DNA from: Gammaproteobacteria bacterium
GTDB lineage: Bacteria; Pseudomonadota; Gammaproteobacteria; Pseudomonadales; CAMLJR01
Length of the DNA stretch: 64,000 nt
Reading direction: 5' to 3'
NCBI GenBank assembly: GCA_029265075.1
Contig: JAJUJZ010000002.1
Location: 207 to 64,206 of the forward strand
In this document: positions 1 through 15,158 of the stretch, piece after piece
Numbering within the stretch: position 1 is the stretch's first letter
Layout: each line of letters begins with the position of its first letter
Program-made: the position numbers and the translations under genes
The notes under the pieces: model-generated
What the model was told of the DNA's origin: nothing
Seen by the model: only the letters and a program-made list of their open reading frames with translations
Database searches by the model: none

Positions 1-840
1 CCAGCCATCTGGCTCGAACAGCAGCTCGTCGGCGTTGCTCAGTCGCACCCGGCCCCTGAGGAAGTTGTCGAAGCCGACAAATTCCGCGACGAAGGCGCTG
101 TTCGGCGACTGGAAGATCTCTTCCGGCGTCCCGAGCTGGGCGATTCCGCCCTCCTTCATTACCGCCACCCGATCCGCCAGGGCCAATGCCTCGCTCTGAT
201 CGTGCGTGACGAAAATGGAGGTGTGGCCAACGCTGTCGTGCACGCGGCGCAGATCGCTGCGCAGGCGGACCCGCAGCTGCGCATCGAGGTTCGACAGCGG
301 CTCATCGAACAGCAGCAGGTCCGGTTTGGCCACGACTGCGCGCGCCAGCGCCACGCGCTGCTGCTGGCCACCGGACAGATCCGAAGGGCTGCGCTGCCCC
401 AGGTTTTCCAGCCCGACCAGCTCCAGCGCAGCGCGCACTTCGCGCTCCGCGTCGGCCCGTCCCAGCGATTTCTGGCGCTGCTTCAGCGGATAGGCGACGT
501 TGTCGAACACCGACATGTGCGGCCACAGCGCGTAGCTCTGGAACACCATGCCGATCGACCGCTTGTTGGGCGGCACTGCAATCCGCTCGGCGGGTGCGGC
601 TACCACCTGTCCGCCGATGGTGATGCTGCCGGCATCGGGCGTCTCCAGCCCCGCCACGCAGCGCAGCGTGGTGGTCTTGCCGCAGCCGCTCGGCCCGAGC
701 AGTACGAAAAATTCCCCTTCCCTGATTTCCAGATCCAGTCCATTGATCGCGCCCTTGCCCTTGATCGACTTCTGTTCGTCGATATCGCGCGGGGCGAAAT
801 ATTTGCGCAACCGACTGATCGTTACACCGCTCACTGTCAT
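1..840 (-). CDS. ABC transporter ATP-binding protein (FbpC/PotA/MalK-like); 3' end lies outside the window
   Basis: Missing from the ORF track because it runs off the left edge. My reverse-strand translation from the ATG at 838-840 reads MTVSGVTISRLRKYF... It has Walker A GPSGCGKTT, ABC signature LSGGQQQRVALARA, Walker B LLLFDEPLSNLD and H-loop FVTHDQ. It starts 39 nt after the permease stop on the same strand. Confidence 0.9.
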   Translation of the reverse strand, partial: MTVSGVTISRLRKYFAPRDIDEQKSIKGKGAINGLDLEIREGEFFVLLGPSGCGKTTTLRCVAGLETPDAGSITIGGQVVAAPAERIAVPPNKRSIGMVFQSYALWPHMSVFDNVAYPLKQRQKSLGRADAEREVRAALELVGLENLGQRSPSDLSGGQQQRVALARAVVAKPDLLLFDEPLSNLDAQLRVRLRSDLRRVHDSVGHTSIFVTHDQSEALALADRVAVMKEGGIAQLGTPEEIFQSPNSAFVAEFVGFDNFLRGRVRLSNADELLFEPDGW

Positions 841-879: not shown

Positions 880-2652
880 TCAGACGCCACTGGCGAGCTC
901 GTCCAGCGATTGCTTGCGGTGGAGGTAGAGCCGGCCGAGCAGTTTCCACAAGCCCAGCGCGGTGAGCAGCACGGCCGCTTCAGCCGCCAGCAGCACCACC
1001 AGCAGCGCGGACGCCGCCGAGAAATCAGAGGTCGAGTTGAGGTTGTAGACAACCGTCGCGACCAGGTTGAGGTCCGGCGCCTTCAGCAGCAACGGGATCT
1101 CTAGGTTGCCGCTGACGATCACCGCCGCCATGAACCAGCCCGCAAAAAAGCTCGGCGCCAGCAGCCACAGCGTCACGTCGATAAAGGTGCGGCGTGGCGA
1201 CGCACCACACACCTGCGCCGCCTCCTGCAACTCCGGTGCGATCTGCACCACGGCGGCGTTGGCGACCTGAGTCGCAAATGGGATCACCGCGATGATCAAT
1301 GCCAGCAGCAACAGGATCGACGAGCCATACAGCTGTTGCAGGCCGGGTACGCTGATCACGGCCGACGATATCGCCAGTGCCGTCACCGCGCCCGGCATGG
1401 CCAGCGGGATGTAGGTGACGAACCGCACCACCGAAAACTCCCGCGCGCTTAGCCCGCGTGAAATCTGCGCGATCAGGATCGCCAGGAACATCGCCAGCAG
1501 ACCGACCAGGATCGACATGGTGAAAGTCAGCGCAACGGCGCTGGTCACGCGCGGCAGCTGGAAGATGTTGACGTAGTGGCGCAGGGAGAAGTTTTCGTAG
1601 ACACTGGGGATCGGCTGGAATGAGGTGAACAGCACCGAACCGATCGGGAACAGCACTGCCAGCACCAGGAACAGCGCAATCGCGGTGCCGACCAGGGGAC
1701 GGCTGCGCTGCAGGCCGATGCGGCGCCGCACGCCCGCCTTGCCGACCACGGTGACGTAGTTCTTTTTGCCGAGCAGCCTGGCCTGGCCCCAGCACAGCAC
1801 GCCCACTACCGCGACCAGAGCGATCGACAGCACGCTCGCCTTGGCGTAATCGGGGCCGCTCATGCCGGTCACAAAGAGCAGGATCCGGGTGGCGATGACG
1901 TTGATGCCCTGCGGCCAGCCGAGGATCAGCACCAGGTCGAACGCCTGCAGGCCGCCGACCAGTCCCAGCAACACCGCGCCGCTGATGGCGGGCGTCAGAG
2001 ACGGCAGGCTGATGCTGAAGAAGGTCTTGAACTGGCTGGCGCCCGATACCAGCGACGCATCGTCGTGCGCCGGACTGAGCGAGCGGAACGGCCCGATCAG
2101 AAACAGATAGATGATCGCCACTTTTTTGAAGATGGAGGCCACGATCAGTCCCGACCAGGTTTCAATATCGACCAGATAGTCGATGCCGAACAGCAGCGTA
2201 CCGAGATTGTTCAGCCAGCCGGTGTACTTGTTGCCCAGGAACGAATAACCGAGCGCATAGAACAGCGGCGGCGTGGCGAAGGCGATCAGCAGGCCGGGCA
2301 GAATCCAGCGCCGCAGCGGCGCGTCAGTCCGCTCGGAGAGAAACGCGAGCGCGGCAGCAATCGCGGTGGCGAACAGCGTCGTCACCACCGAGATGATCAT
2401 CGAGTTGTAGACGGCATCGCCGATGCCCGCCCCGGTAAAGGTGGTGCGCCACGCTTCAGTGGTCCACTCGCTCTCGAAGCCGGGCGGCAGCGTGCGGAAG
2501 GAGCCGACGACCAGCATCACCGCCGGCCAGACCATCATCACCAGCAGCAGCCCGTAAAGGAACAGCCGCGGGGTCAGTCGTGGCGACCAGCTCGGCAGGC
2601 CGAGGCCCGGGGACCACTTCTCTGTCTGGGTCAGGGATTGCTCAATCGTCAT
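880..2652 (-). CDS. Fused two-module ABC transporter permease (FbpB/ThiP-like)
   Basis: 590-aa ORF that is very hydrophobic throughout. Two EAA-type loops are visible (DDASLVSGASQFKTFFSISLPSL and LQEAAQVCGASPRRTFIDVTLWLLAP), indicating a duplicated BPD-type permease. It sits directly upstream of the ATPase gene. Confidence 0.85.
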   Translation of the reverse strand: MTIEQSLTQTEKWSPGLGLPSWSPRLTPRLFLYGLLLVMMVWPAVMLVVGSFRTLPPGFESEWTTEAWRTTFTGAGIGDAVYNSMIISVVTTLFATAIAAALAFLSERTDAPLRRWILPGLLIAFATPPLFYALGYSFLGNKYTGWLNNLGTLLFGIDYLVDIETWSGLIVASIFKKVAIIYLFLIGPFRSLSPAHDDASLVSGASQFKTFFSISLPSLTPAISGAVLLGLVGGLQAFDLVLILGWPQGINVIATRILLFVTGMSGPDYAKASVLSIALVAVVGVLCWGQARLLGKKNYVTVVGKAGVRRRIGLQRSRPLVGTAIALFLVLAVLFPIGSVLFTSFQPIPSVYENFSLRHYVNIFQLPRVTSAVALTFTMSILVGLLAMFLAILIAQISRGLSAREFSVVRFVTYIPLAMPGAVTALAISSAVISVPGLQQLYGSSILLLLALIIAVIPFATQVANAAVVQIAPELQEAAQVCGASPRRTFIDVTLWLLAPSFFAGWFMAAVIVSGNLEIPLLLKAPDLNLVATVVYNLNSTSDFSAASALLVVLLAAEAAVLLTALGLWKLLGRLYLHRKQSLDELASGV

Positions 2653-2733: not shown

Positions 2734-3906
2734 TTACTGCTTCTTGGGTGCCAGTACCGGCGGTTCGTGGTCCAGATCGAGCAGCGGCAGCAGCAGCTCG
2801 GCGGTGTATTCCGCCTCCTGCGCCTGCGGCCAGCCAGACAGGATGAAGTTGTCGATACCCACTTCGCTCTGCAGCCACTTGAGGCGGTCGGCCACCTGCT
2901 GTGCGCTGCCGACAATGTATGTGCCTGCACCTTCGCCCGGCAGGTCGAGTAGCGCGCCCCACCCCGTCATGCCCGCGTACATGTTGGGCGCGATCTCAAG
3001 ATCCTCGAGGCGCGGCAGACGGCCGGCGCGCAGTGCATCGATGCGCGCCTGCACTTTCGGGTTGCTGCTGCTGATGCCGTTGAGGCCTTCCTTGTGCACG
3101 CCGCGAGCGATCAGCGCCTCGTGTGCAGAGCGCGCGATCGCTTCGGCGCCGGTGCTCTCCAGCAGCTGCTGGAAGTGACGAATCGCCTCCTCCTCGGTTT
3201 CGCGCACCACCACGCTGGCGAGCGCGCCGAACTCGAGGGTCCGTCCCTGCAGCGCAGCGGCCGCCTTGGCGTCCTGGATCTGCTTGGCAACGTCTGCCGG
3301 ATTGCGCAGAAACGCGAGATAGACGTCCACCACCTGCGCAGCGTGGCCAATACCGGCCGGCGAAGCGCCGGCGCCCCACAGCGGAATGCAGGGCGACTGC
3401 ACAGGGCCGAGCGGCAGGTTGCTGGAGAGCAGCACGTTCGAGTCGCGGCCAGAGATGTTGAAGTACTTGCCGCGGTGCGTGACGTTCTCGCCCTTGTAGA
3501 GGCGCTTGAACAGCTTCCAGTACTCGGCGCTCATCTCGTAGCGCTCGTCGTGCTCGACATCGACGCCGTAACGCGCCAGCGTCTTGTCGGTGCCGTTGAC
3601 GAGATTGAACAGCAGGCGGCCGCCCGAATAGTCGTCGAAGGTCAGCGCCTGCTGCGCAAGCAGCGATGGCGGCGTAACGCCCGGATAGATCGGGATCAGG
3701 AAACGCATCCGTTCGGTGACCGAGATCAGCGACGTCACTGTAATGAAGACATCGTGCGCGTAGGTCCCGAACAGCGCGCCGTAGAAGCCGCCGCGGTCGA
3801 CGGTCTGCGCGGTGCGGCGCAGACGAGCGTGATCCACTGGAAAGCGGCCTTCGGGAACCCACGGACGACGACCGTCTACCGGGCTGATGTACCAGAGCAC
3901 TTTCAT
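2734..3906 (-). CDS. LLM-class flavin-dependent monooxygenase, SsuD (alkanesulfonate monooxygenase) family
   Basis: The 390-aa product is collinear by eye with E. coli SsuD as I remember it: RFPVDH, LLFNLVNGTD, HDERYEMSAEY, VDVYLAF, VVVRETEEEA, LEIAPNMYAG, IDNFILSGWPQAQEAEYTAELLLPLLDL. Confidence 0.8.
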   Translation of the reverse strand: MKVLWYISPVDGRRPWVPEGRFPVDHARLRRTAQTVDRGGFYGALFGTYAHDVFITVTSLISVTERMRFLIPIYPGVTPPSLLAQQALTFDDYSGGRLLFNLVNGTDKTLARYGVDVEHDERYEMSAEYWKLFKRLYKGENVTHRGKYFNISGRDSNVLLSSNLPLGPVQSPCIPLWGAGASPAGIGHAAQVVDVYLAFLRNPADVAKQIQDAKAAAALQGRTLEFGALASVVVRETEEEAIRHFQQLLESTGAEAIARSAHEALIARGVHKEGLNGISSSNPKVQARIDALRAGRLPRLEDLEIAPNMYAGMTGWGALLDLPGEGAGTYIVGSAQQVADRLKWLQSEVGIDNFILSGWPQAQEAEYTAELLLPLLDLDHEPPVLAPKKQ

Positions 3907-3932: not shown

Positions 3933-4607
3933 CTATTTGAAGTGGCTAGTCGCGCCGCTCTTGCGGATGGCGCGCTGGATGTCGTCGTAGGCGTCTTCCG
4001 GCAGCGGACGTGCCCCGCCCAGCTGGTCGGCAAGCAGTTCGATCTGCGCGGCGGCCTCGAAGAATTTGAGGCGGGTTGCCGCTTCGGAAATGGTGTCGCC
4101 GAAAACGAACGCGCCGTGGTTGCCGTGCAGAACGCCGGGGATCTCCGGGTAGTCGCGCAGCGTTTCCAGCAGGGGTGAACCATCGTCACGCGGGCTGTAA
4201 CGGGTGACCGGAAGGACGTCGCGCTGACCGAACCGGGGCTGCGAAATATGGATATTGCGCAGCGGGCGGTAGGCGGTGGAGAACGCCATCAGGTACGGGG
4301 TGTGGGCGTGGAATGCAGCCTTCACGTCGGGGCGTGAGGTAAAAATGCCGATATACAGCGGCGCGTACTCGCGTACCGCGGGATAGGGAGCGCCGTGGAC
4401 CACTTCGCCCTGGAAATTGAACACCACCACGCCACGGTCGGGATGGCGCGCCGCGCTGCCGATCACGAAGAGGTTGTCGTCGCCGGGGAAGCGCCATGCA
4501 CCGTTGGCTGCACCGGGGACCGTGCGCGGCGTGTCAGCCAGCTGGTTCTCGACGATCTGGGCGAAGCGGAAAAGGTCAACGCCTTCGAATTCGTTCTGTT
4601 TGCTCAT
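3933..4607 (-). CDS. Class II aldolase/adducin-domain protein
   Basis: 224 aa with metal-binding His motifs AFHAHTPY and VLHGNHGAFVFG, typical of the class II aldolase fold. Same strand, 26 nt upstream of the monooxygenase gene. Confidence 0.75.
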   Translation of the reverse strand: MSKQNEFEGVDLFRFAQIVENQLADTPRTVPGAANGAWRFPGDDNLFVIGSAARHPDRGVVVFNFQGEVVHGAPYPAVREYAPLYIGIFTSRPDVKAAFHAHTPYLMAFSTAYRPLRNIHISQPRFGQRDVLPVTRYSPRDDGSPLLETLRDYPEIPGVLHGNHGAFVFGDTISEAATRLKFFEAAAQIELLADQLGGARPLPEDAYDDIQRAIRKSGATSHFK

Positions 4608-4652: not shown

Positions 4653-5690
4653 TCAGGCGAGTCCTGCCCTCGCCTCTTCCAGCAGGCTGGTATCGATCCA
4701 GCTGCTGATGTCGAAGTCTTCTTCGATAAAGCCAAGCTGCAGGAGGTAATCCTTCTGGTTTTCCAGCGCGGCGATGGAGGTCTCGGTGAAGTCGACGGCG
4801 ATGCTGTCGACCAGCCCGGCGCCGAAGGCCGATTCGACGATCTGCTCCGCCACGGCCTGCTCGCGCGCGATGAAACGCACAGCTTCCTGGAAGTTGTCGC
4901 GCGCCCACTGTTCCGCCTGCAGGATGCGTTTGAGGATCCGCACCACCACGTCGCGATGCTGGTCGATGAAGGCTTCGTCGACGGTCAGCGTCAGCGGCGT
5001 ACTGTTGTTGGCGCGCTCGCGTTCGTCCGGCAGCGAGGCCAGGTCGAAAACGCGGTTGAGACCGAACAGGAATTCGAGCTGCGGCGCGGGAGAGCCGATA
5101 GTGCGCGAGGTGATCACGTCCACTTCGCCGCGAATCAGCGGCAGCAGGCCGTCGGTGTACCAGGCGCGCTCGATGCGGCCGGTGTTGCTGCGGTTCTTGC
5201 GCGGTACCGCGGTGGTCAGGTCGGGCTCCACCAGCGTGACGTCGTCGAATGTCAGGCCGGCGCTGCGCAGCGCTGCTTCATAGGTGCGGCGCGAGGTCGA
5301 GTACTGGAAGTCGATCGGCGCGCTGGTGTTGCGCTGCAGCAGCAGTCGTTTGCCGCGCAGATCGGACGGCTGGGTGATCCCGGATTCCGGCAGGCTCAGC
5401 ACTGCCTGCGGGCCGCGCACGAAGCTGAGGCCGATAACCTTGGTTTTGGCGCCGCGCGAGCGGGTCCAGATCGCCGGGATGTTGCCGCCGTGGCGGATCA
5501 GGTTGCCGAGCTGGTGCGAGAAGTGGCTTTGCAGCCGCTCCGGATTGGCGTCTGCCTGCAGCAGCTGAAAGTCGACGTCGCCGCCAGCCGGAAACTCTTC
5601 CGCGAACAGGCCGAGGTGCACGCCGATGCCGAGTCCCGTCGGGATCGGGCAGCGGGTGTAGTACACCGGAAGGGCCGAAGCTGTGGTCAT
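4653..5690 (-). CDS. Signal-less NMT1/SsuA-fold protein; DszB-type desulfinase candidate
   Basis: 345 aa with no signal peptide or lipobox (MTTASALPVYYTRCPIPTGLG...). Segments resemble remembered DszB motifs: YTRCPIP, SHF-(10 residues)-IRHGGNIP, QWARDNFQEAV. Only 66 nt separate its start from the stop of the upstream receptor gene. Confidence 0.6.
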   Translation of the reverse strand: MTTASALPVYYTRCPIPTGLGIGVHLGLFAEEFPAGGDVDFQLLQADANPERLQSHFSHQLGNLIRHGGNIPAIWTRSRGAKTKVIGLSFVRGPQAVLSLPESGITQPSDLRGKRLLLQRNTSAPIDFQYSTSRRTYEAALRSAGLTFDDVTLVEPDLTTAVPRKNRSNTGRIERAWYTDGLLPLIRGEVDVITSRTIGSPAPQLEFLFGLNRVFDLASLPDERERANNSTPLTLTVDEAFIDQHRDVVVRILKRILQAEQWARDNFQEAVRFIAREQAVAEQIVESAFGAGLVDSIAVDFTETSIAALENQKDYLLQLGFIEEDFDISSWIDTSLLEEARAGLA

Positions 5691-5756
5691 GTCAGAAATC
5701 CTCGAAACGCACTGACTGAAAAAGCGGCCGGCGGCCGCAGCCGCCGACCCAACGGG

Positions 5757-8213
5757 TCAAAAGTTGTAGCTGGCGTTCACGTAGTAGAACGCGCCGTTGT
5801 AGCCAGCCGGTGAGGCTGCGGAGTAGTAGGTCTGACCCAGCGTGCGCTGCTCGGGAATCTGCTTGTCCGGATGGGTATCGAACAGGTTGCGCGCGCCCAG
5901 GCCGATCCGCAGAGCGTCGGTGAAGCTGTAACCCACTTCCAGATCGGTCACCCACTGGGCGCCGTAGGTCTGGTCGAAGCGGCCATTGCTCGGGTGAGCG
6001 ATGGAGAACTCGCCATAACGCACGACATTGAGTGCGGCATCCCAGCGCGCCTGCTGCCAGCTGGCGCCGACCACCAGTTTGTCTTCGGGTGCGTAGTCTT
6101 CGATGATGGCGCGCGTCTGACGGCCCACCAGCACCACGCCGGAGCCTTGCAGCTGCGAGGGGTTGGCTGCCACACCTTCGATCTCGGTCTTGGCGCGGCT
6201 GTATGCAACTGTCAGGTCGAGGTTGCCAGCGTCCAGATCCCATTCGTACTTGCCGACGATATCGACGCCGCGGGTCTTGGTATCCACGCCATTGATGAAG
6301 AACTGCGCGAACTGGATGTCCGGGAAGCCGGCGCTGGTCAGGATCGAGTTGACCAGCGGGCCGCCGAGTGCGTCTGTCAGAACGATGCGGTCGTCGATAT
6401 CGATCTGGTAGGCATCGATGGTCAGCGAAGCGTTGGCTGTCGGGGTGATAACCAGACCTACCGAGTAGTCCAGCGACTCTTCCGGGGTCAGCGCCTTGGC
6501 ACCGAGCGCGCGCGCTTCGGGGCTGTCGACCGGCAGACCGCGGGTCGAGGTGAAGTTGATGGTGCCGACCTGGGTGCTGAGACCGGTATAGGCATATCCG
6601 CTCTGCGCCAGCGCAGGAGCGCGGAAGCCCGAGCTGACCGACGCGCGCAGCGCCACGGCGTCGCTGAACTCATAACGCGCCGATACCTTGCCGTTGGTGG
6701 TCGAGCCGGCGTCGTTGTAGTCGTCGTAACGGGCGGTCAGACCGATGTCGAGGCGCTCGAAGGGCGAGAATTCGGCGCTGGCATAAGCGCTGACTACTTC
6801 GCGCGACAGATCGACCGCATCCTGCGGGTAGAGGCCCGTGTTGCCACGCGAACCGATCAGCGGCACCTGGCCTGCGTTGGGGCCGTCGGGAATCAGCACG
6901 CCGCCATTGGCCCAGGTTTCATAGGTGCCGGCTTTGGTCTTGTAGTGATCTTTCCGGTAGGCAACGCCAGCGGTAAGCGCCAGCGGGCTGTCCAGTGCCG
7001 GCAGCTCGATCTCGGTCACGTAGTCCAGGTTGGCGCCGACCGAGCTGTTCTTGCGCGAGAAAAGACGGTCGAACGAAGTCGGGCTATCTGCGCCGAAGGT
7101 CGGGTTGACCGACGGGCCAACGCCCTGCCCCAGCTTGTTCCAGCCGTACGAGAGCGAGAAGTCGAGCTTGCCGAACTCATCGTCGATGAAGCGGACGCCG
7201 CCCAGTGCGCTGAAATCGCGGTTCTTGTAGGTGGCCACCGGCTGGTAGCCATCCGGAAACAGCTCGCGGACGTTACCTTTGTCGTTCGGCGGAATGAAAT
7301 TCTGGCGCGACTCGTTCTCGCTGTCCGTATAGGAGAGCGAACCGTAGGTGGTCACGGCATCGGTGATGCCGATTTCCGCATTCGCCAGCAGGTTGTAGGT
7401 GTCGCGGTTCGGCGGCTGGGCCCACTGGACGCGGTCTTTGCGAGCCGTAGCTTCCCGGGCATCGCCATCGAAATACCACTGGCGCGGGTCTGCCGGACCG
7501 GAGAGCGGCGGACGCTCGCTGTAACGGTCGAAAGCCAGCGTCAGGAAGCCGTCGCCCGGCAGCTCGAAGCCCTTCCAGCCGCTGATGCTGGCGCCGAATT
7601 TGTCGCTGTCGGCCTTGAACTGGCCGTACTGGGCGGAGAGGTTGCCGCCCTCGGCTTCACCCTTCAGTACCACGTTGATAACGCCTGCAACAGCGTCCGA
7701 GCCGTACTGTGCCGAAGCGCCGTCACGCAGCACTTCGATGTGATCGATGGCGCTGAGCGGGATGGTGTTCAGGTCAACGGGCTGGGCATTGTTGGCGCTC
7801 AGGCCGGCGATGGTGTGGCGGCGTTTGCCGTTGACCAGTACCAGTACCTGGTCGGCCGACAGGCCGCGCAGGGTGGCTGCCTTCACACCGTTGTTCACAA
7901 AACCGCCAGTGGGCGAGTTGAACGAGGGAGCGAGTTTCTGCAGTGCCTCATTGAGACGGGTCACGCCGCCCTTCTCGATCAGGTCTGATTGCACGACATC
8001 GACCGGCGCGGAGCTGGTCAGCGGGGTAACGTCGCTGCGGCTGGTACCGGTGACGACGATCTCTTCGATCGAACCAGCCCGCGCGTAGTCGGCCAGTGTT
8101 GCAGGCTGGATATCCGTAGCCGCCGCAAAACCATTGGTTGAATTGAAAGCAATGAAGGCGCTCAGCGCCGTCAACTGAAATTTTCTGCTACCGATATATG
8201 AAAAAGCGGACAT
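5757..8213 (-). CDS. TonB-dependent outer-membrane receptor
   Basis: 818 aa. Signal peptide MSAFSYIGSRKFQLTALSAFIAFNSTNGFAAA, TonB-box-like IEEIVVTG, plug motif LRGLSADQVLVLVNGKR, and a long beta-barrel region ending in the aromatic terminus ...NASYNF. Confidence 0.92.
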   Translation of the reverse strand: MSAFSYIGSRKFQLTALSAFIAFNSTNGFAAATDIQPATLADYARAGSIEEIVVTGTSRSDVTPLTSSAPVDVVQSDLIEKGGVTRLNEALQKLAPSFNSPTGGFVNNGVKAATLRGLSADQVLVLVNGKRRHTIAGLSANNAQPVDLNTIPLSAIDHIEVLRDGASAQYGSDAVAGVINVVLKGEAEGGNLSAQYGQFKADSDKFGASISGWKGFELPGDGFLTLAFDRYSERPPLSGPADPRQWYFDGDAREATARKDRVQWAQPPNRDTYNLLANAEIGITDAVTTYGSLSYTDSENESRQNFIPPNDKGNVRELFPDGYQPVATYKNRDFSALGGVRFIDDEFGKLDFSLSYGWNKLGQGVGPSVNPTFGADSPTSFDRLFSRKNSSVGANLDYVTEIELPALDSPLALTAGVAYRKDHYKTKAGTYETWANGGVLIPDGPNAGQVPLIGSRGNTGLYPQDAVDLSREVVSAYASAEFSPFERLDIGLTARYDDYNDAGSTTNGKVSARYEFSDAVALRASVSSGFRAPALAQSGYAYTGLSTQVGTINFTSTRGLPVDSPEARALGAKALTPEESLDYSVGLVITPTANASLTIDAYQIDIDDRIVLTDALGGPLVNSILTSAGFPDIQFAQFFINGVDTKTRGVDIVGKYEWDLDAGNLDLTVAYSRAKTEIEGVAANPSQLQGSGVVLVGRQTRAIIEDYAPEDKLVVGASWQQARWDAALNVVRYGEFSIAHPSNGRFDQTYGAQWVTDLEVGYSFTDALRIGLGARNLFDTHPDKQIPEQRTLGQTYYSAASPAGYNGAFYYVNASYNF

Positions 8214-8459: not shown

Positions 8460-9182
8460 TCAGTCGACCAGGTAATACTCGAGCGTCGAGACGACGCGAA
8501 CATTCTTGATATGGGGCGTATTGCTGTCACGATCCGAGATGCTGAATTGCCCCTGATTCGCCTGTCTGATCTTGCCCAGTTTGCTGCGTGAATCCTGCGC
8601 AAATTTTTCCGCCACCTCACGCGCTGCCCGGGTCGCCTCCTCGATCATCACCGGCTTGATCTCGTTGAGATTGGTATAGAGATATTCCACCCGCGCCTGG
8701 TAGTCATCACTGGTCACCGCGACGCCCTGGCGGCTCAGATCCAGTAGTGACTCGCGCGTGGTTCGCACGGCATCGACACGTTCCGTAAAGACCGTCACCA
8801 CGTGCGCTGCGACAAAGCGAAACGCCTCACGGCTGGCGTCGCCATAACTTTGCGCCCGCTTGTCAGTGATCGATGGCGCGGTCACGCTGATTTCATCCTC
8901 CTTGAAGCCGTGTCGCTCCAGAAAATCGAGGATGAGCTGGGTTGAGCGCTCCAGCTGACTGGTCAGGTCGGCCAGATCATTGCTCGCCACCGTATAGCGG
9001 ATGGGCCAGATGGCCTGATTCGCGGGCACTTCCCGCTCGGCCAGCCCCTTGACGGTAACGGTGCGCTCCAGCTTTTTGGCGGCCAGTATGGCATTGCCGC
9101 CCCACCAGGCTGCCCCACACAACCCGAACGCCAGCAGCACGCCCAGAACAGCTGCTTCCCCAATCCAACGGCGCTCACGCAT
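8460..9182 (-). CDS. SIMPL-domain (DUF541) periplasmic/membrane-anchored protein
   Basis: The track ORF is 8460-9230. I prefer the internal ATG at 9182 (MRERRWIGEAAVLGVLLAFGLCGAAWW, an N-terminal membrane anchor, with GAGGA 8 nt upstream). The 9230 start would leave only 11 bp to the divergent gloA. The body resembles the SIMPL family (VTVKGLAEREVPANQAIWPIRY...). Confidence 0.7.
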   Translation of the reverse strand: MRERRWIGEAAVLGVLLAFGLCGAAWWGGNAILAAKKLERTVTVKGLAEREVPANQAIWPIRYTVASNDLADLTSQLERSTQLILDFLERHGFKEDEISVTAPSITDKRAQSYGDASREAFRFVAAHVVTVFTERVDAVRTTRESLLDLSRQGVAVTSDDYQARVEYLYTNLNEIKPVMIEEATRAAREVAEKFAQDSRSKLGKIRQANQGQFSISDRDSNTPHIKNVRVVSTLEYYLVD

Positions 9183-9241
9183 AATGTCGTCCTCGAAATT
9201 TGGTAAAGTGAACGGCTGAGTTTCAGGCAAGGAGTATAAAC

Positions 9242-9682
9242 GTGGAATACCTTCATACCATGGTGCGCGTCACCGATCTCGACGAATCTTTGCGTTTCTA
9301 CTGCGACCATCTGGGCATGGTTGAAGTCTCCCGCATGGAAAGCGAGAAAGGTCGGTTCACCCTGGTTTATCTGGCGGCTCCCGGCGACCTGGAACAAGCG
9401 CGGGAAGACAAGCGCCCGACGCTGGAGCTCACCTACAACTGGGACCCCGAGGAGTATACCGGTGGCCGCAACTTCGGGCACGTCGCTTATCGGGTCGAGA
9501 ACATCTACGAGACCTGCCAGCGCCTGATGGATGCCGGCATCACCATCAACCGCCCCCCGCGCGATGGCCATATGGCGTTCATCCGTTCGCCCGATAACAT
9601 CTCGATCGAACTGCTGCAGAAAGGGGATACGCTGCCGCCGCAGGAGCCGTGGGCGTCGATGCCGAATACCGGCACGTGGTAA
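9242..9682 (+). CDS. gloA: Lactoylglutathione lyase (glyoxalase I)
   Basis: 146 aa with a GTG start. [44 protein letters not shown] and IELLQKG are typical of Ni-type GloA. Confidence 0.9.
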
Positions 9683-9689
9683 GCGTGGC

Positions 9690-9717
9690 GCGACACGGGC
9701 CTTCCGGCCAGTGTCGC
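9690..9717. terminator. Strong hairpin between convergent gloA and the tRNA-binding-protein gene
   Basis: GCGACAC-G-GGCC-TTCC-GGCC-A-GTGTCGC is a near-perfect 11-bp interrupted stem. No U-tract on either side, so its role as a bidirectional terminator is inferred only. Confidence 0.4.
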
Positions 9718-9737
9718 GATCTCTCACCAGAACAGGT

Positions 9738-10079
9738 TCAAAGCAGTTTCGTCCCCAGCGGGACCGGCCTGTCGGGCACGCATAATGCCACTTCGCCCGC
9801 CTCGTTGTGAAAACCGGTTACCAGACACTCAGACATGATCGGGCCGATCTGCTTCTTCGGGAAGTTGACCACCGCCACAACCAGTTTGCCGACCAGCTCC
9901 TCAGGCTCATAGAGTCCCGTGATCTGAGCGCTCGATTTCCGGATGCCAATCTCCGGTCCAAAATCGACTCGCAACAGATAGGCCGGCTTGCGCGCCTTCT
10001 CAAATGGCTCGGCTTCGACAATTCGTCCCACGCGCAGCTCGACCTTCAGAAATTCATCCCAGCTGATGGTTTCCACCAC
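9738..10079 (-). CDS. tRNA-binding domain protein (CsaA/YgjH-like)
   Basis: 113 aa. WDEFLKVELRVGRIVEAEPFEKARKPAYLLRVDFG...GKLVVAVVNFPKKQIG matches the OB-fold tRNA-binding domain pattern. Confidence 0.85.
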   Translation of the reverse strand: MVETISWDEFLKVELRVGRIVEAEPFEKARKPAYLLRVDFGPEIGIRKSSAQITGLYEPEELVGKLVVAVVNFPKKQIGPIMSECLVTGFHNEAGEVALCVPDRPVPLGTKLL

Positions 10080-10385
10080 TCTCTCCCAGCGCCGCTCTCA
10101 ACCTGAACTGGCACGAACGTTACCGCCGTGCTGTCAATGAGGAGTGCATGTTATGCGAACTCCCGCTCAGGTGGAATGACGCAGGCATACGGAGCGAGGC
10201 AACGGCTGGCGGCCATTCGCCGACATGCTTCAGCACCGCAACAGCCAGAACAATACGTCCGCCCGTCCAGACCGCAGCGCTGTTATTCGTAACAGAAGAA
10301 GTGTGCCAGCCATGATTCCGCGTCGCTATGGAGTCTCGCTGGCGAAAGCGCTGAGCCAGCACGCCAGAGATGATTTGCGGACTGC

Positions 10386-10520
10386 TCAGGCCGTTAGACC
10401 CGCCCACCCCATCACCTGGCGCAACACCCACGCAACAGCTCCAAGCGCCGCGACACTCGCCACCCATAACCCCGCAAACCACGCCCACCGGCGCCAGGCG
10501 GAGTCAGGTTGCTCGGGCAT
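10386..10520 (-). CDS. Small membrane protein, DUF2474-like, translationally coupled to cydB
   Basis: Below the ORF-track size cutoff. Its ATG overlaps the cydB stop (cacTGATGccc). It encodes 44 aa, MPEQPDSAWRRWAWFAGLWVASVAALGAVAWVLRQVMGWAGLTA, with one hydrophobic helix. As I recall, short proteins of this kind commonly follow cydAB/cioAB. Confidence 0.6.
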   Translation of the reverse strand: MPEQPDSAWRRWAWFAGLWVASVAALGAVAWVLRQVMGWAGLTA

Positions 10521-11524
10521 CAGTGATACCCCTCCCCGTGCCGGACTTTGCCGCGAAATATGTAATAGGCCATTGCTGTGTAGGCGAGTACCAGCGGAAC
10601 AATCAGTGCGGTGCCAATAAGCGCGAAGGTCTGGCTCGATTCGGGGGCGGCGGCGTCCCAGATGGAGATCGATGGCGGCACAGCAAACGGCCAGATGCTG
10701 ATGGCCATGCCGACATAACCGAGCAGTGACAGCACCAGCGCCCAGATGAACGGCCCGGCGTCACGGCCGCCCTTGCGCAGCGACCGAAACAGCAGTACTG
10801 CGACCACCAGCACCAGCGTTGGCACAGGCGACAGAAACAGAAAGTTGGGCATCGCGAACCAGCGCTCCGCCACGTAGGGCAAGGCGATGGGCGTCCAGAT
10901 GCTGATAACGCCAATCACGGCCAGCAAGGCCAACGTCAGGGGGCGAGTGATGCGGATCATGCGCTGCTGCAGCTCACCTTCAGTCTTGATGATCAGCCAG
11001 GTGCTGCCAAGCAGCGTGTAGGCGACAACCACGCCCAGCCCCGTAAACAGGGGGAACGGCGCAAGCCAGTCGAGCGGACCGCCGGCGTAGGTGTGTCCCT
11101 CCAGCGCAATGCCCATCAGGAAAGCGCCGAGCGCGACACCCTGGAAGAACGACGCTACCAGCGAGCCACCGATGAATGCGGCATCCCACAGGCTGCGATC
11201 TTTTTCCGGCGCCTTAAAGCGGAACTCGAAAGCCACGCCACGAAAGATCAGGCCCAGCAGCATGAAGATCAATGGCAGGTAAAGTGCGCTCAGCACCACC
11301 GAGTAGGCGACAGGAAAAGCCGCCAGTAATCCGGCACCGCCCAGCACCAGCCAGGTCTCGTTGCCATCCCATACCGGCGCCACGGTATTCATCATGATGT
11401 CACGATCGTGACGGTCAGGTTCCATCAGGAAGAGCGCGCCAATACCGAGATCGAAACCATCCATCAGCACATACATCATCACCCCGAAAAAGATGATGAC
11501 TGCCCACACCAGTGACAGATCCAT
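10520..11524 (-). CDS. cydB: Cytochrome bd-type ubiquinol oxidase subunit II
   Basis: 334 aa polytopic membrane protein starting MDLSLVWAVIIFFGVMMYVLMDGFDLGIG. It begins 2 nt after the subunit I gene. Confidence 0.92.
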   Translation of the reverse strand: MDLSLVWAVIIFFGVMMYVLMDGFDLGIGALFLMEPDRHDRDIMMNTVAPVWDGNETWLVLGGAGLLAAFPVAYSVVLSALYLPLIFMLLGLIFRGVAFEFRFKAPEKDRSLWDAAFIGGSLVASFFQGVALGAFLMGIALEGHTYAGGPLDWLAPFPLFTGLGVVVAYTLLGSTWLIIKTEGELQQRMIRITRPLTLALLAVIGVISIWTPIALPYVAERWFAMPNFLFLSPVPTLVLVVAVLLFRSLRKGGRDAGPFIWALVLSLLGYVGMAISIWPFAVPPSISIWDAAAPESSQTFALIGTALIVPLVLAYTAMAYYIFRGKVRHGEGYH

Positions 11525-11526
11525 GG

Positions 11527-12966
11527 CTATGCCCTCCCCTCTGGTTCGCTACCATGCTGTGGGTCACCGCTCACCAGTACATCTTCGCCGCTGGCAGAAA
11601 TGGGCCGCATGGCGTGATGCAGCTGTCCGGGTCCGCCGGTGGTGGTATCGGCCATCTCTTCCGGACCACGCGCCACCAGTCTCAGGACGTACCAGATCCC
11701 GACACCAAACACGAAGAAATAGGTGGCGACGAACAGCACGAGCGTAGTGCCCAGCGTGCCCGCGCTGTGCGCAGAGACGCCGTCGGCGGTGCGCATCAGT
11801 CCCTGCACCAGCCACGGCTGACGTCCGATCTCAGTGGTGTACCAGCCGGCGAGTATGGCGATCAGACCAGTGGGGCCCATCGCCACGGCGAAACGCAGCA
11901 ACGGCCGTGACTGATAGAGCCGGTCACCTCGACGCAGAACGAGTGCCCAGATGCCCAGCACAATCATAAGCACGCCCAGCCCGACCATGATGCGAAAACT
12001 CCAGAAGATGATGTGCGCAGGCGGCCGGTCTTCGGGAGCGAACTCACTGAGAGCAGGAATGTGGCCATCCCAGGTGTGCGTCAGGATCAGGCTTCCCAGT
12101 CCCGGAATGCCGACGGCCCAGTCTGTGCGCTCGTCGAGCATATTGGGCCAGCCAAACAGCAACAGCGGCACCGCCTCGCCCTCGACGTTCTCCCAGTGGC
12201 CTTCCATGGCAGCGATTTTTGCGGGCTGATATTCGAGTGTATTTAGCCCATGCAGGTCCCCGATCACCGCCTGCAACGGCGCGACCAGCAATGCCATCCA
12301 CATCGCCATCGAGAACATCTTGCGCACGGCCGGTGTATTGCGTCCGCGCAGCAGATGCCAGGCCGCCGAACCGCCGACGAACAGGGCAGTGGCAAGGAAA
12401 GCTGCCACGGCCATATGAGCAAGGCGGAAAGGAAACGACGGGTTGAAAATGATCAGCCACCAGTCGACCGGAATCACGCGGCCATCGACGATGGCGTGGC
12501 CCTGAGGCGTATGCATCCAGCTGTTGGAAGCGAGAATCCAGAACGTGGAAACCAGGGTGCCAAGCGCGACCATCACCGTGGCGAAGAAATGCAGTTTTGG
12601 ACCAACCCGGTTCCAGCCGAAAAGCATAATGCCGAGAAAGCCGGCCTCAAGAAAAAAGGCGGTCAGCACTTCATAGGCGAGTAACGGACCGGTGATACTG
12701 CCGGCAAATTCGGAAAAGTAGCTCCAGTTGGTGCCGAACTGGTACGCCATTACCAGTCCGGAAACCACCCCCATACCGAAGTTGACTGCGAAAATTTTCG
12801 ACCAGAAATGGTAAAGCTGCTTGTAGAGATCGCGCTGCGTGCGTAGCCAGCATGCTTCGAGTACGGCCAGATAGGCCGCCAGCCCGATGGTGATGGCCGG
12901 AAAGATGATGTGAAAGGAGATCGTGAAGCCGAACTGGATGCGAGCCAGCTCAAGAGCTGTGAACAT
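11527..12966 (-). CDS. cydA: Cytochrome bd-type ubiquinol oxidase subunit I (size suggests the short-Q-loop, CIO-like type)
   Basis: The track ORF extends to 12999. I prefer the ATG at 12966 (MFTALELARIQFGFTISFHIIFP), which is preceded by AAGGAGG. At 479 aa it is shorter than E. coli CydA, consistent with the cyanide-insensitive subgroup. Confidence 0.92.
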   Translation of the reverse strand: MFTALELARIQFGFTISFHIIFPAITIGLAAYLAVLEACWLRTQRDLYKQLYHFWSKIFAVNFGMGVVSGLVMAYQFGTNWSYFSEFAGSITGPLLAYEVLTAFFLEAGFLGIMLFGWNRVGPKLHFFATVMVALGTLVSTFWILASNSWMHTPQGHAIVDGRVIPVDWWLIIFNPSFPFRLAHMAVAAFLATALFVGGSAAWHLLRGRNTPAVRKMFSMAMWMALLVAPLQAVIGDLHGLNTLEYQPAKIAAMEGHWENVEGEAVPLLLFGWPNMLDERTDWAVGIPGLGSLILTHTWDGHIPALSEFAPEDRPPAHIIFWSFRIMVGLGVLMIVLGIWALVLRRGDRLYQSRPLLRFAVAMGPTGLIAILAGWYTTEIGRQPWLVQGLMRTADGVSAHSAGTLGTTLVLFVATYFFVFGVGIWYVLRLVARGPEEMADTTTGGPGQLHHAMRPISASGEDVLVSGDPQHGSEPEGRA

Positions 12967-13088
12967 CCCTGACACCTCCTTGTCCTTGTGGCAGCCCAAC
13001 CGGGGCCCGGTTCAGACTGTGACCATCGTAAGCGCACTCCGCTCACCCTCACAACCGGGCATTTGGTCGCAGCTCAGGAAAGGTGGCG

Positions 13089-15158
<2,070 letters not shown>

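Follow-up and report, generated by a model that had tools for sequence, protein, structure and literature searches.

A predicted cytoplasmic homolog of the desulfinase DszB encoded beside a sulfur-poor TonB-dependent receptor

The window analyzed here is a whole stretch of 64,000 nt from a gammaproteobacterial contig (JAJUJZ010000002.1), and all coordinates refer to it. The minus-strand gene at 4653-5690 encodes a 345-aa protein that, judged by sequence alignment, profile searches and a predicted structure, is homologous to DszB, the 2'-hydroxybiphenyl-2-sulfinate desulfinase of Rhodococcus IGTS8 (EC 3.13.1.3), and shares its type II periplasmic-binding-protein fold. We observe homology to DszB, its fold and conserved residues, a cytoplasmic location, a sulfur-poor composition and a conserved gene neighborhood. 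On this basis we favor, with some reserve, a reading in which the protein is a cytoplasmic desulfinase of the DszB lineage that would release sulfite from a sulfinate made by neighboring enzymes from an imported organosulfur compound, the operon being expressed under sulfur limitation. A preliminary description, made from the sequence alone, had proposed a substrate other than that of DszB, and we likewise infer a different sulfinate. The gene and its two key motifs are located as follows.

4653..5690, minus strand: DszB-like cytoplasmic binding-protein-fold protein, 345 aa (sequence, profile and fold searches)
5649..5651, minus strand: codon of Cys14, the sole Cys of the protein, equivalent to catalytic Cys27 of DszB (alignment; invariant in alignment A1, below)
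5484..5525, minus strand: codons of His56 to Gly69, SHFSHQLGNLIRHGG, equivalent to DszB His60 plus Arg70-x-Gly-Gly73 (alignment; H56, R66, G68 and G69 invariant in A1)

Results

The protein matches DszB in sequence and predicted fold

A single-sequence HMMER search (phmmer) of 177,635 PDB sequences returned DszB (2de2_A) as the top match (E 3.6e-9). The preliminary description had lined up four blocks with DszB, and the HMMER alignment to 2de2_A places all four in register: yytrCPiP with DszB tySNCPVP, which holds Cys27; sHF...iRhGGnIP with vHF...tRfGGeIP, which holds His60, Arg70 and Gly73; qWARDnfqeav with lWARDhsdav; and FGAg...aLEnqkdyLLqlgf with FGAd...lLErtqqfLLtnnl. We then used A1, an alignment of 44 homologs with 37-78% identity to the window protein, as the basis of a family profile. 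This profile matched DszB over its full length (profile 9-348 versus DszB 19-360, E 8.8e-43) compared to partial matches to SsuA/TauA-type proteins (1e-5 to 1e-10), the best transport protein being E. coli SsuA with about 80 residues aligned (E 3.4e-10). The chain of the DszB C27S mutant scored 7 bits below wild-type DszB against the same profile. In the reciprocal direction, phmmer with DszB 19-360 matched Cys-motif proteins from 80 related loci down to 1.5e-31, versus only 1e-4 to 1e-2 for the substrate-binding proteins (SBPs) with signal peptides from those loci, and a rough neighbor-joining tree placed DszB and the family in one clade with the signal-peptide SBPs outside. The window protein also matched Pfam NMT1 (2.3e-9) and part of TIGR01728 SsuA_fam, the latter at 69.7 bits and below the cutoff of 163.5.

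Structure prediction, which the preliminary description had suggested as a check, agreed with the sequence searches. The AlphaFold model (pLDDT 92.7, pTM 0.90) retrieved three DszB entries ahead of all others in a Foldseek search of the PDB (E 9e-20 to 7e-19, TM 0.76-0.78; best 2de3_B, E 9e-20, TM 0.78), with SsuA as runner-up (E 6e-16, TM 0.68), followed by TauA, ThiY/THI5 and others; SsuA/TauA structures overall gave TM values of 0.61-0.68. Every feature of the DszB family that we checked at the sequence level was found in the window protein, and those of SsuA/TauA were not.

The gene has no room for an export signal

The open reading frame (ORF) at 4653-5690 is real, as had been proposed, with the correction that it lies on the minus strand, with its ATG at 5690 and its stop codon at 4655-4653. 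The product begins MTTASALPVYYTRCPIP. Upstream, the ORF of a TonB-dependent receptor (5757-8213, minus strand) ends in ...YNF-TGA in the same frame, and the 66 nt between the two (5691-5756) contain a GAGGA ribosome-binding site before the DszB-like ATG and, as already noted in the preliminary description, not one in-frame ATG, GTG or TTG, so that a longer N-terminus is impossible. In line with the preliminary description, which saw neither a signal peptide nor a lipobox, the N-terminus lacks a lipobox, and it is also devoid of a hydrophobic h-region and a twin-arginine motif. The AlphaFold model assigns residues 7-13 to the first strand of the fold. The product is accordingly assigned to the cytoplasm from its sequence. 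Signal peptides in orthologs, which had been named as an observation that would speak against a DszB-like reading, were seen in none of the 120 closest homologs; all 120 have a short hydrophilic leader followed by [WY]YTRCP[VI]P. No second copy of the gene was found in the window.

One family member departs from this pattern. Although P0140 (370 aa) has retained HHTRCPVPS and RHGG, it bears a Tat/lipobox-like leader, MVGRRTFLRALLVGTSGLWCGCS, and may be an exported exception within the family.

The DszB catalytic set is conserved

Residues Ser25, Cys27, His60, Arg70, Gly72 and Gly73 of DszB align with Thr12, Cys14, His56, Arg66, Gly68 and Gly69 of the window protein, bearing out the proposed Cys/His/Arg-x-Gly-Gly constellation; the RXGG motif reads Arg66-His-Gly68-Gly69 here and Arg70-Phe-Gly-Gly in DszB. 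Work on DszB gives these positions defined roles: C27 is essential and C27S is inactive, H60Q causes an approximately 17-fold loss of activity, S25 hydrogen-bonds H60, R70 lies within the RXGG motif conserved among DszB homologs, and G73 contacts the sulfinate/Arg (PMC6100217). In A1, C14, P15, H56, R66, G68, G69 and P72 are invariant and Thr12 is nearly so (≥90%). Conservation of the Cys, a further check proposed at the outset, extends to 114 of 133 family representatives, among which His56 is kept in 109, Arg66 in 129 and the two Gly in 123 and 120.

Natural Cys-to-Ser members of the family include P0139, P0163, P0192 and P0254, with an example at L046:3912-4988 (minus strand). In Burkholderia/Paraburkholderia loci they adjoin Cys-bearing paralogs, and they may be non-catalytic binders.

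The DszB-like protein and the receptor are depleted of sulfur

A low content of Cys and Met is an established mark of sulfate-starvation-induced proteins. The DszB-like protein contains one Met, the initiator, and one Cys, Cys14, in 345 aa (Cys+Met 0.58%), and the 818-aa receptor contains a single Met and no Cys (0.12%). This Met is likewise the initiator, so that removal of a signal peptide, which is to be expected in TonB-dependent receptors, would leave the mature receptor free of sulfur. Two further operon products, described below, contain two Met and no Cys in 224 aa (aldolase-like protein, 0.89%) and five Met and one Cys in 390 aa (luciferase-like monooxygenase, 1.54%), compared to roughly 2-4.5% for most other ORFs of the window. 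Against a background of 2.8%, Poisson probabilities were about 0.004 for the DszB-like protein and 3e-9 for the receptor. The depletion of Cys and Met in these two proteins is a signature of sulfur-starvation proteins.

The same economy holds across the family, whose mean Cys+Met content is 0.76%. In the 120 closest homolog clusters, the motif Cys is the only Cys in 84 and a single Met is present in 94, and DszB itself has one Cys and no Met in residues 19-360. Neighbor families from the 80 related loci are also sulfur-poor, at 0.45% for TonB-dependent receptors and about 1.1-1.3% for aldolase-like, SsuD-like, DszA-like and ACAD-like proteins and nitroreductases. Retention of Cys14 in an otherwise sulfur-purged protein indicates that this Cys is needed, and is a strong pointer to function.

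The operon encodes predicted import proteins and a flavin-dependent monooxygenase

The DszB-like gene is the second of a minus-strand operon in the order TonB receptor, DszB-like protein, class II aldolase-like protein, SsuD-like monooxygenase, ABC permease and ABC ATPase.

5757..8213, minus strand: TonB-dependent outer-membrane receptor, 818 aa, first gene of the operon (Pfam Plug and TonB_dep_Rec_b-barrel)
3933..4607, minus strand: class II aldolase/adducin-fold protein, 224 aa (Pfam Aldolase_II, E 3.2e-20)
2734..3906, minus strand: SsuD/MsuD-like FMNH2-dependent luciferase-like monooxygenase (LLM), 390 aa (Pfam Bac_luciferase)
880..2652, minus strand: fused two-domain ABC importer permease, 590 aa (two BPD_transp_1 stretches)
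1..840, minus strand: ABC importer ATPase, starting at about 840 and continuing past the left end of the window (Walker A GPSGCGKTT, signature LSGGQQQR)
5723..5749, minus strand: terminator-like GC-rich hairpin and T-run between the receptor stop and the DszB-like start (10-pair stem, 9 G-C, then TTTTT)

The LLM gave SsuD (1.5e-58) and MsuD (5.4e-55) as its best PDB matches and scored 240 bits against TIGR03565, whose cutoff is 518. In MsuD, W195, R225 and R296 (the last in the RGGA loop) bind the sulfonate and are each essential for sulfonate binding and sulfite release, every alanine variant being dead (PMC8234197). The window LLM has Phe, Leu and Gly at these positions and 'GEGA' in place of the RGGA loop, a pattern otherwise found only in its Pseudomonas ortholog, whereas 18 SsuD-like LLM ORFs of other loci keep W/R/R. 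Loss of these three equivalents makes it unlikely that the window LLM is a canonical alkanesulfonate monooxygenase; by analogy with DszA and SfnG, it could act on a neutral sulfur substrate and form a sulfinate.

The aldolase-like protein is less readily interpreted. Its best PDB match is the decarboxylase NovR (4e-9), a word-indexed homolog search returned five matches, and the AlphaFold model built from the resulting five-sequence alignment (pLDDT 48.8) was too poor for use. Among its relatives in the 80 loci, H100-x-H102, R125, N163, G165 and E184 are invariant, and 43 of 45 have Gly instead of the third metal-binding His of class II aldolases (H164 in the window protein), so the metal site of this family may be atypical.

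The best NCBIfam match of the permease is of PhnU2 type, well below cutoff, and not of SsuC type. The closest named relative of the window protein, at 76% identity, comes from Pseudomonas sp. LRF_L74 (locus L001), where the genes next in the operon encode an SBP_bac_6 binding protein, a pair of exporter-type ABC half-transporters and a LysR regulator; the SBP_bac_6 protein indicates that the importer has a binding protein of its own. A Zoogloea ortholog (53% identity) keeps the receptor, DszB-like, aldolase-like and LLM genes, with the ABC system replaced by an MFS transporter, and its locus also encodes a RutE-like nitroreductase and, divergently, a receiver-less sigma-54 activator.

The operon is one version of a recurrent neighborhood

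To count neighbors, ORFs were called anew in the 80 related loci and clustered by BLAST, Pfam was run on cluster representatives, and genes within 10 kb of the DszB-like gene were tallied.

Class II aldolase-like protein: 43 of 80 loci
SsuC-type permease: 43 of 80
SsuD-like LLM: 39 of 80
TonB-dependent receptor: 35 of 80
Signal-peptide SsuA-like SBP: 34 of 80
Exporter-type ABC pair: 28 of 80
Receiver-less sigma-54 activator: 25 of 80
DszA-like LLM: 21 of 80
MFS transporter: 16 of 80
Nitroreductase: 13 of 80
DszC-like ACAD: 12 of 80

Many of the loci hold two to four DszB-like paralogs, and one gene string that recurs among them reads s54> B> Ald> LLM> B> ABC> ABC>. More distant family members occur in clusters resembling dsz itself. 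In one of these, the DszB-like gene is accompanied by two ACAD (DszC-like) genes, two LLMs and an MFS transporter; in another, from Conexibacter, by two separate ACAD genes, ABC genes, an LLM and an NMT1_2 SBP.

The exporter-type ABC half-transporter pair (ABC_membrane plus ABC_tran, MsbA/CydDC-like) recurs beside receptor and DszB-like genes, and was found at L001:10548-13990 as well as, as counted above, in 28 of the 80 loci L008-L087. In the window, the region upstream of the operon (8460-15116, minus strand) holds ordinary genes, namely SIMPL/DUF541, cytochrome bd-type oxidase subunits I and II and the NAD-dependent DNA ligase LigA, and a terminator-like hairpin follows the SIMPL/DUF541 gene (stem 8443-8426).

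Regulatory signals around the operon

The strong hairpin at 5723-5749 is a putative attenuator that could set the ratio of receptor to enzyme transcripts. Scanning for a sigma-70 promoter yielded none, and alignment of the receptor upstream region with that of the Pseudomonas ortholog revealed no conserved promoter. A GG-N10-GC element, TGGCTTAATCGCCGC, at 8259-8245 (minus strand) precedes the receptor ATG by 46 nt and looks like a weak sigma-54 -24/-12 site. We rejected it as a promoter because it is too weak; its information content is low, and the Pseudomonas ortholog does not share it. The operon is probably expressed under sulfur limitation.

The family is widespread under a transporter label

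A word-indexed search found 592 related clusters. An exhaustive search of 1.84 billion representatives, clustered at 50% identity, found 700 clusters at E ≤ 1e-3, 382 at ≤ 1e-10 and 134 at ≤ 1e-30, and a pattern scan of one genome per species found a relative in at least 416 species-representative genomes. DszB-type proteins had been called rare in the preliminary description, which holds for characterized enzymes but not for sequences, given these 416 or more genomes and the 134 clusters at the strictest threshold. Carriers include Pseudomonas, Acinetobacter baylyi, A. guillouiae, Burkholderia/Paraburkholderia and Sphingomonas/Sphingobium, together with Janthinobacterium, Methylophilus, Nostoc, Pedobacter and Conexibacter. 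The names given to relatives by their sources are always 'ABC transporter substrate-binding protein' or similar.

Two family members have unusual architectures. P0233 (935 aa) joins an FAD aromatic-ring hydroxylase (PF01494 plus Rng_hyd_C) to a DszB-like domain with IWYSRCP and REGG, a fusion that hints at aromatic substrates. P0198 (618 aa) reads as a fragment of a sigma-54 activator with a DszB-like domain behind it and is N-terminally truncated; it may be a real fusion, or two neighboring genes joined by the gene caller.

Discussion

In the mechanism that we consider the likelier one, an organosulfur compound would pass the outer membrane through the TonB-dependent receptor and the inner membrane through the ABC importer with its own binding protein, after which the flavin monooxygenase, possibly together with the class II aldolase-fold metalloprotein, would convert it to a sulfinate. 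This sulfinate would sit in the cleft between the two lobes of the DszB-like protein, held by Arg66, His56 and the Gly68-Gly69 backbone, while Cys14 would donate a proton to the sulfur-bearing carbon. Breakage of the C-S bond would then yield SO2/sulfite for cysteine synthesis. The family as a whole probably allows soil bacteria short of sulfate to obtain sulfur from organic compounds that they import.

Several findings weigh against this account. Identity between the window protein and DszB is low (24% by BLASTP, E 2e-13). Cys is absent at the aligned column in 19 of the 133 family representatives, of which 2 are N-terminally truncated and 8 carry Ser; as this is the change that inactivates DszB, not all family members can work by the DszB mechanism. 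The ipso-protonation carried out by DszB needs an aryl, vinyl or otherwise stabilized carbon, and no such substrate is in view. The window operon encodes neither a DszC-like (ACAD) nor a DszA-like enzyme but an LLM of the SsuD branch, which leaves the production of a sulfinate an assumption of the model. Finally, we found no sulfur-responsive regulator or recognizable promoter in the window.

Database labels would make the window protein an ordinary periplasmic SsuA/TauA-type binding protein of the adjacent ABC transporter, and the NMT1 match, the partial SsuA_fam match, the names of its homologs and the ABC genes within the same operon all agree with those labels. Yet the protein has neither a signal peptide nor space for an upstream start, the 120 closest homologs lack a signal peptide as well, its SsuA_fam score is less than half the cutoff, and the family profile runs the full length of DszB compared to a partial alignment with SsuA. 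The surrounding genes argue in the same direction, since the adjacent permease is fused and PhnU2-like rather than SsuC, the orthologous Pseudomonas operon encodes a separate SBP_bac_6 protein, and the Zoogloea ortholog stands beside an MFS transporter instead. Leader, profile and context thus effectively refute a periplasmic role, as the preliminary description had anticipated, and we regard it as extremely improbable.

Alternatively, the protein could be cytoplasmic and bind a ligand without catalysis, either as a sensor for the receiver-less sigma-54 activator or as a carrier to the monooxygenase. Such a role draws on the presence of this activator in 25 of 80 loci, usually directly upstream of the DszB-like gene ('s54> B>'), on P0198, which reads as an activator fragment plus a DszB-like domain, on the natural Cys-to-Ser members and on the two to four paralogs in many loci. 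We consider it quite unlikely here, however, because neither the window operon nor its closest ortholog has an adjacent sigma-54 activator, P0198 is truncated and possibly two genes called as one, the entire DszB catalytic set is invariant in the clade, beyond the residues needed for binding, and a lone Cys retained in a sulfur-purged protein would be hard to explain. A different reaction in the same Cys/His/Arg pocket, such as hydrolytic aryl-sulfonate protodesulfonation, another C-S cleavage or decarboxylation of an aromatic acid, strikes us as a minority prospect, improbable but deserving some weight. DszB chemistry has itself been described as reminiscent of aryl protodesulfonation (PMC6100217), Foldseek also matched a binding-protein-fold 4,5-dihydroxyphthalate decarboxylase (9jp7), the nearest solved relative of the aldolase-like neighbor is the decarboxylase NovR, and P0233 is fused to an aromatic-ring hydroxylase. 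However, 9jp7 ranks far below DszB, the conserved residues are those that hold the sulfinate in DszB, and the sulfur-poor composition together with SsuD-, DszA- and DszC-like neighbors indicates sulfur acquisition and not carbon catabolism.

A broader picture can be entertained, which we offer tentatively and hold to be possible but not probable. DszB-like proteins might be general desulfinases of bacterial sulfur-starvation regulons rather than specialists for xenobiotics, and the DszB-like protein, the aldolase-fold protein and the flavin monooxygenase might form an undescribed three-enzyme route to sulfite from natural, possibly (hetero)aromatic, organosulfur compounds imported by TonB-dependent receptors, with dibenzothiophene desulfurization as a late offshoot of that ancestral role. 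Our literature search found no description of this proteobacterial clade or of the DszB-like/aldolase-like/LLM module, and the DszB-like genes are not mentioned in the Acinetobacter baylyi DMS paper. To our knowledge, no desulfinase is among the known bacterial routes to organic soil sulfur (Ssu, Tau, Ats and Sfn/Msu). Several hundred sequence clusters have the DszB catalytic set, yet are labeled as transporter binding proteins where they are named at all, and they are spread over Pseudomonas, Acinetobacter baylyi, Burkholderia, Sphingomonas, methylotrophs and cyanobacteria. Should these proteins be active, an entire enzymatic step and the substrates it acts on are overlooked by genome annotation and by sulfur-cycle models, in a setting where most of the sulfur of aerobic soil is organically bound (PMC3839906). 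DszB is also the rate-limiting, product-inhibited enzyme of biodesulfurization (PMC12168087), so a large natural reservoir of variants would be practically useful. The question is directly testable because close relatives occur in genetically tractable strains.

Comparison with known systems

SsuA and TauA (PDB 2X26, 3E4R, 6SSY) belong to the same fold superfamily as the window protein (Pfam NMT1), are its next-best structural matches and bear the same database label, but they have signal peptides and SsuC-type permeases and lack the Cys/His/RxGG set. The SfnG/MsuC/MsuD route of Pseudomonas and Acinetobacter converts dimethylsulfone to methanesulfinate, methanesulfonate and finally sulfite (PMC8234197, PMC13352529). 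Like the proposed pathway, it serves sulfur-starved cells and relies on an LLM to convert its substrate, here a sulfone, to a sulfinate, and it is controlled by a receiver-less sigma-54 activator, SfnR. It differs in that MsuC oxidizes the sulfinate to the sulfonate, which is cleaved by MsuD with no desulfinase involved, and in that the window LLM is without the sulfonate-binding residues of MsuD.

DszB (PDB 2DE2, 2DE3) shares with the window protein the type II fold without a signal peptide, homology over its full length, the Ser/Thr-x-Cys-Pro, His and Arg-x-Gly-Gly elements in register, a single Cys (in DszB, over residues 19-360) and a flavin-dependent LLM encoded alongside. In the predicted structure, loop 165-174 (low pLDDT, flexible) lies at the position of the DszB 187-204 lid. 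In contrast, the window protein is 24% identical to DszB and comes from a proteobacterial-looking host, and its operon starts with a TonB receptor, carries an ABC importer, encodes an SsuD-like rather than a DszA-like LLM, lacks DszC and adds a conserved class II aldolase-fold partner. The dibenzothiophene-derived substrate of DszB is unlikely to be that of the window protein. The nearest functional precedent is the bdsABC operon of Gordonia terrae C-6, in which a desulfinase of low homology acts with an 'alkanesulfonate monooxygenase' and an FMNH2 monooxygenase to turn benzothiophene into o-hydroxystyrene; the operon is induced when sulfate is absent, and the evidence comes from the whole operon in E. 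coli extracts (PMC3868597). Whereas bdsABC is actinobacterial, includes a DszC-like FMNH2 monooxygenase and has neither a TonB receptor nor an aldolase-like partner, its desulfinase BdsA, compared here by description, is like the window protein a divergent relative of DszB paired with an SsuD-like LLM.

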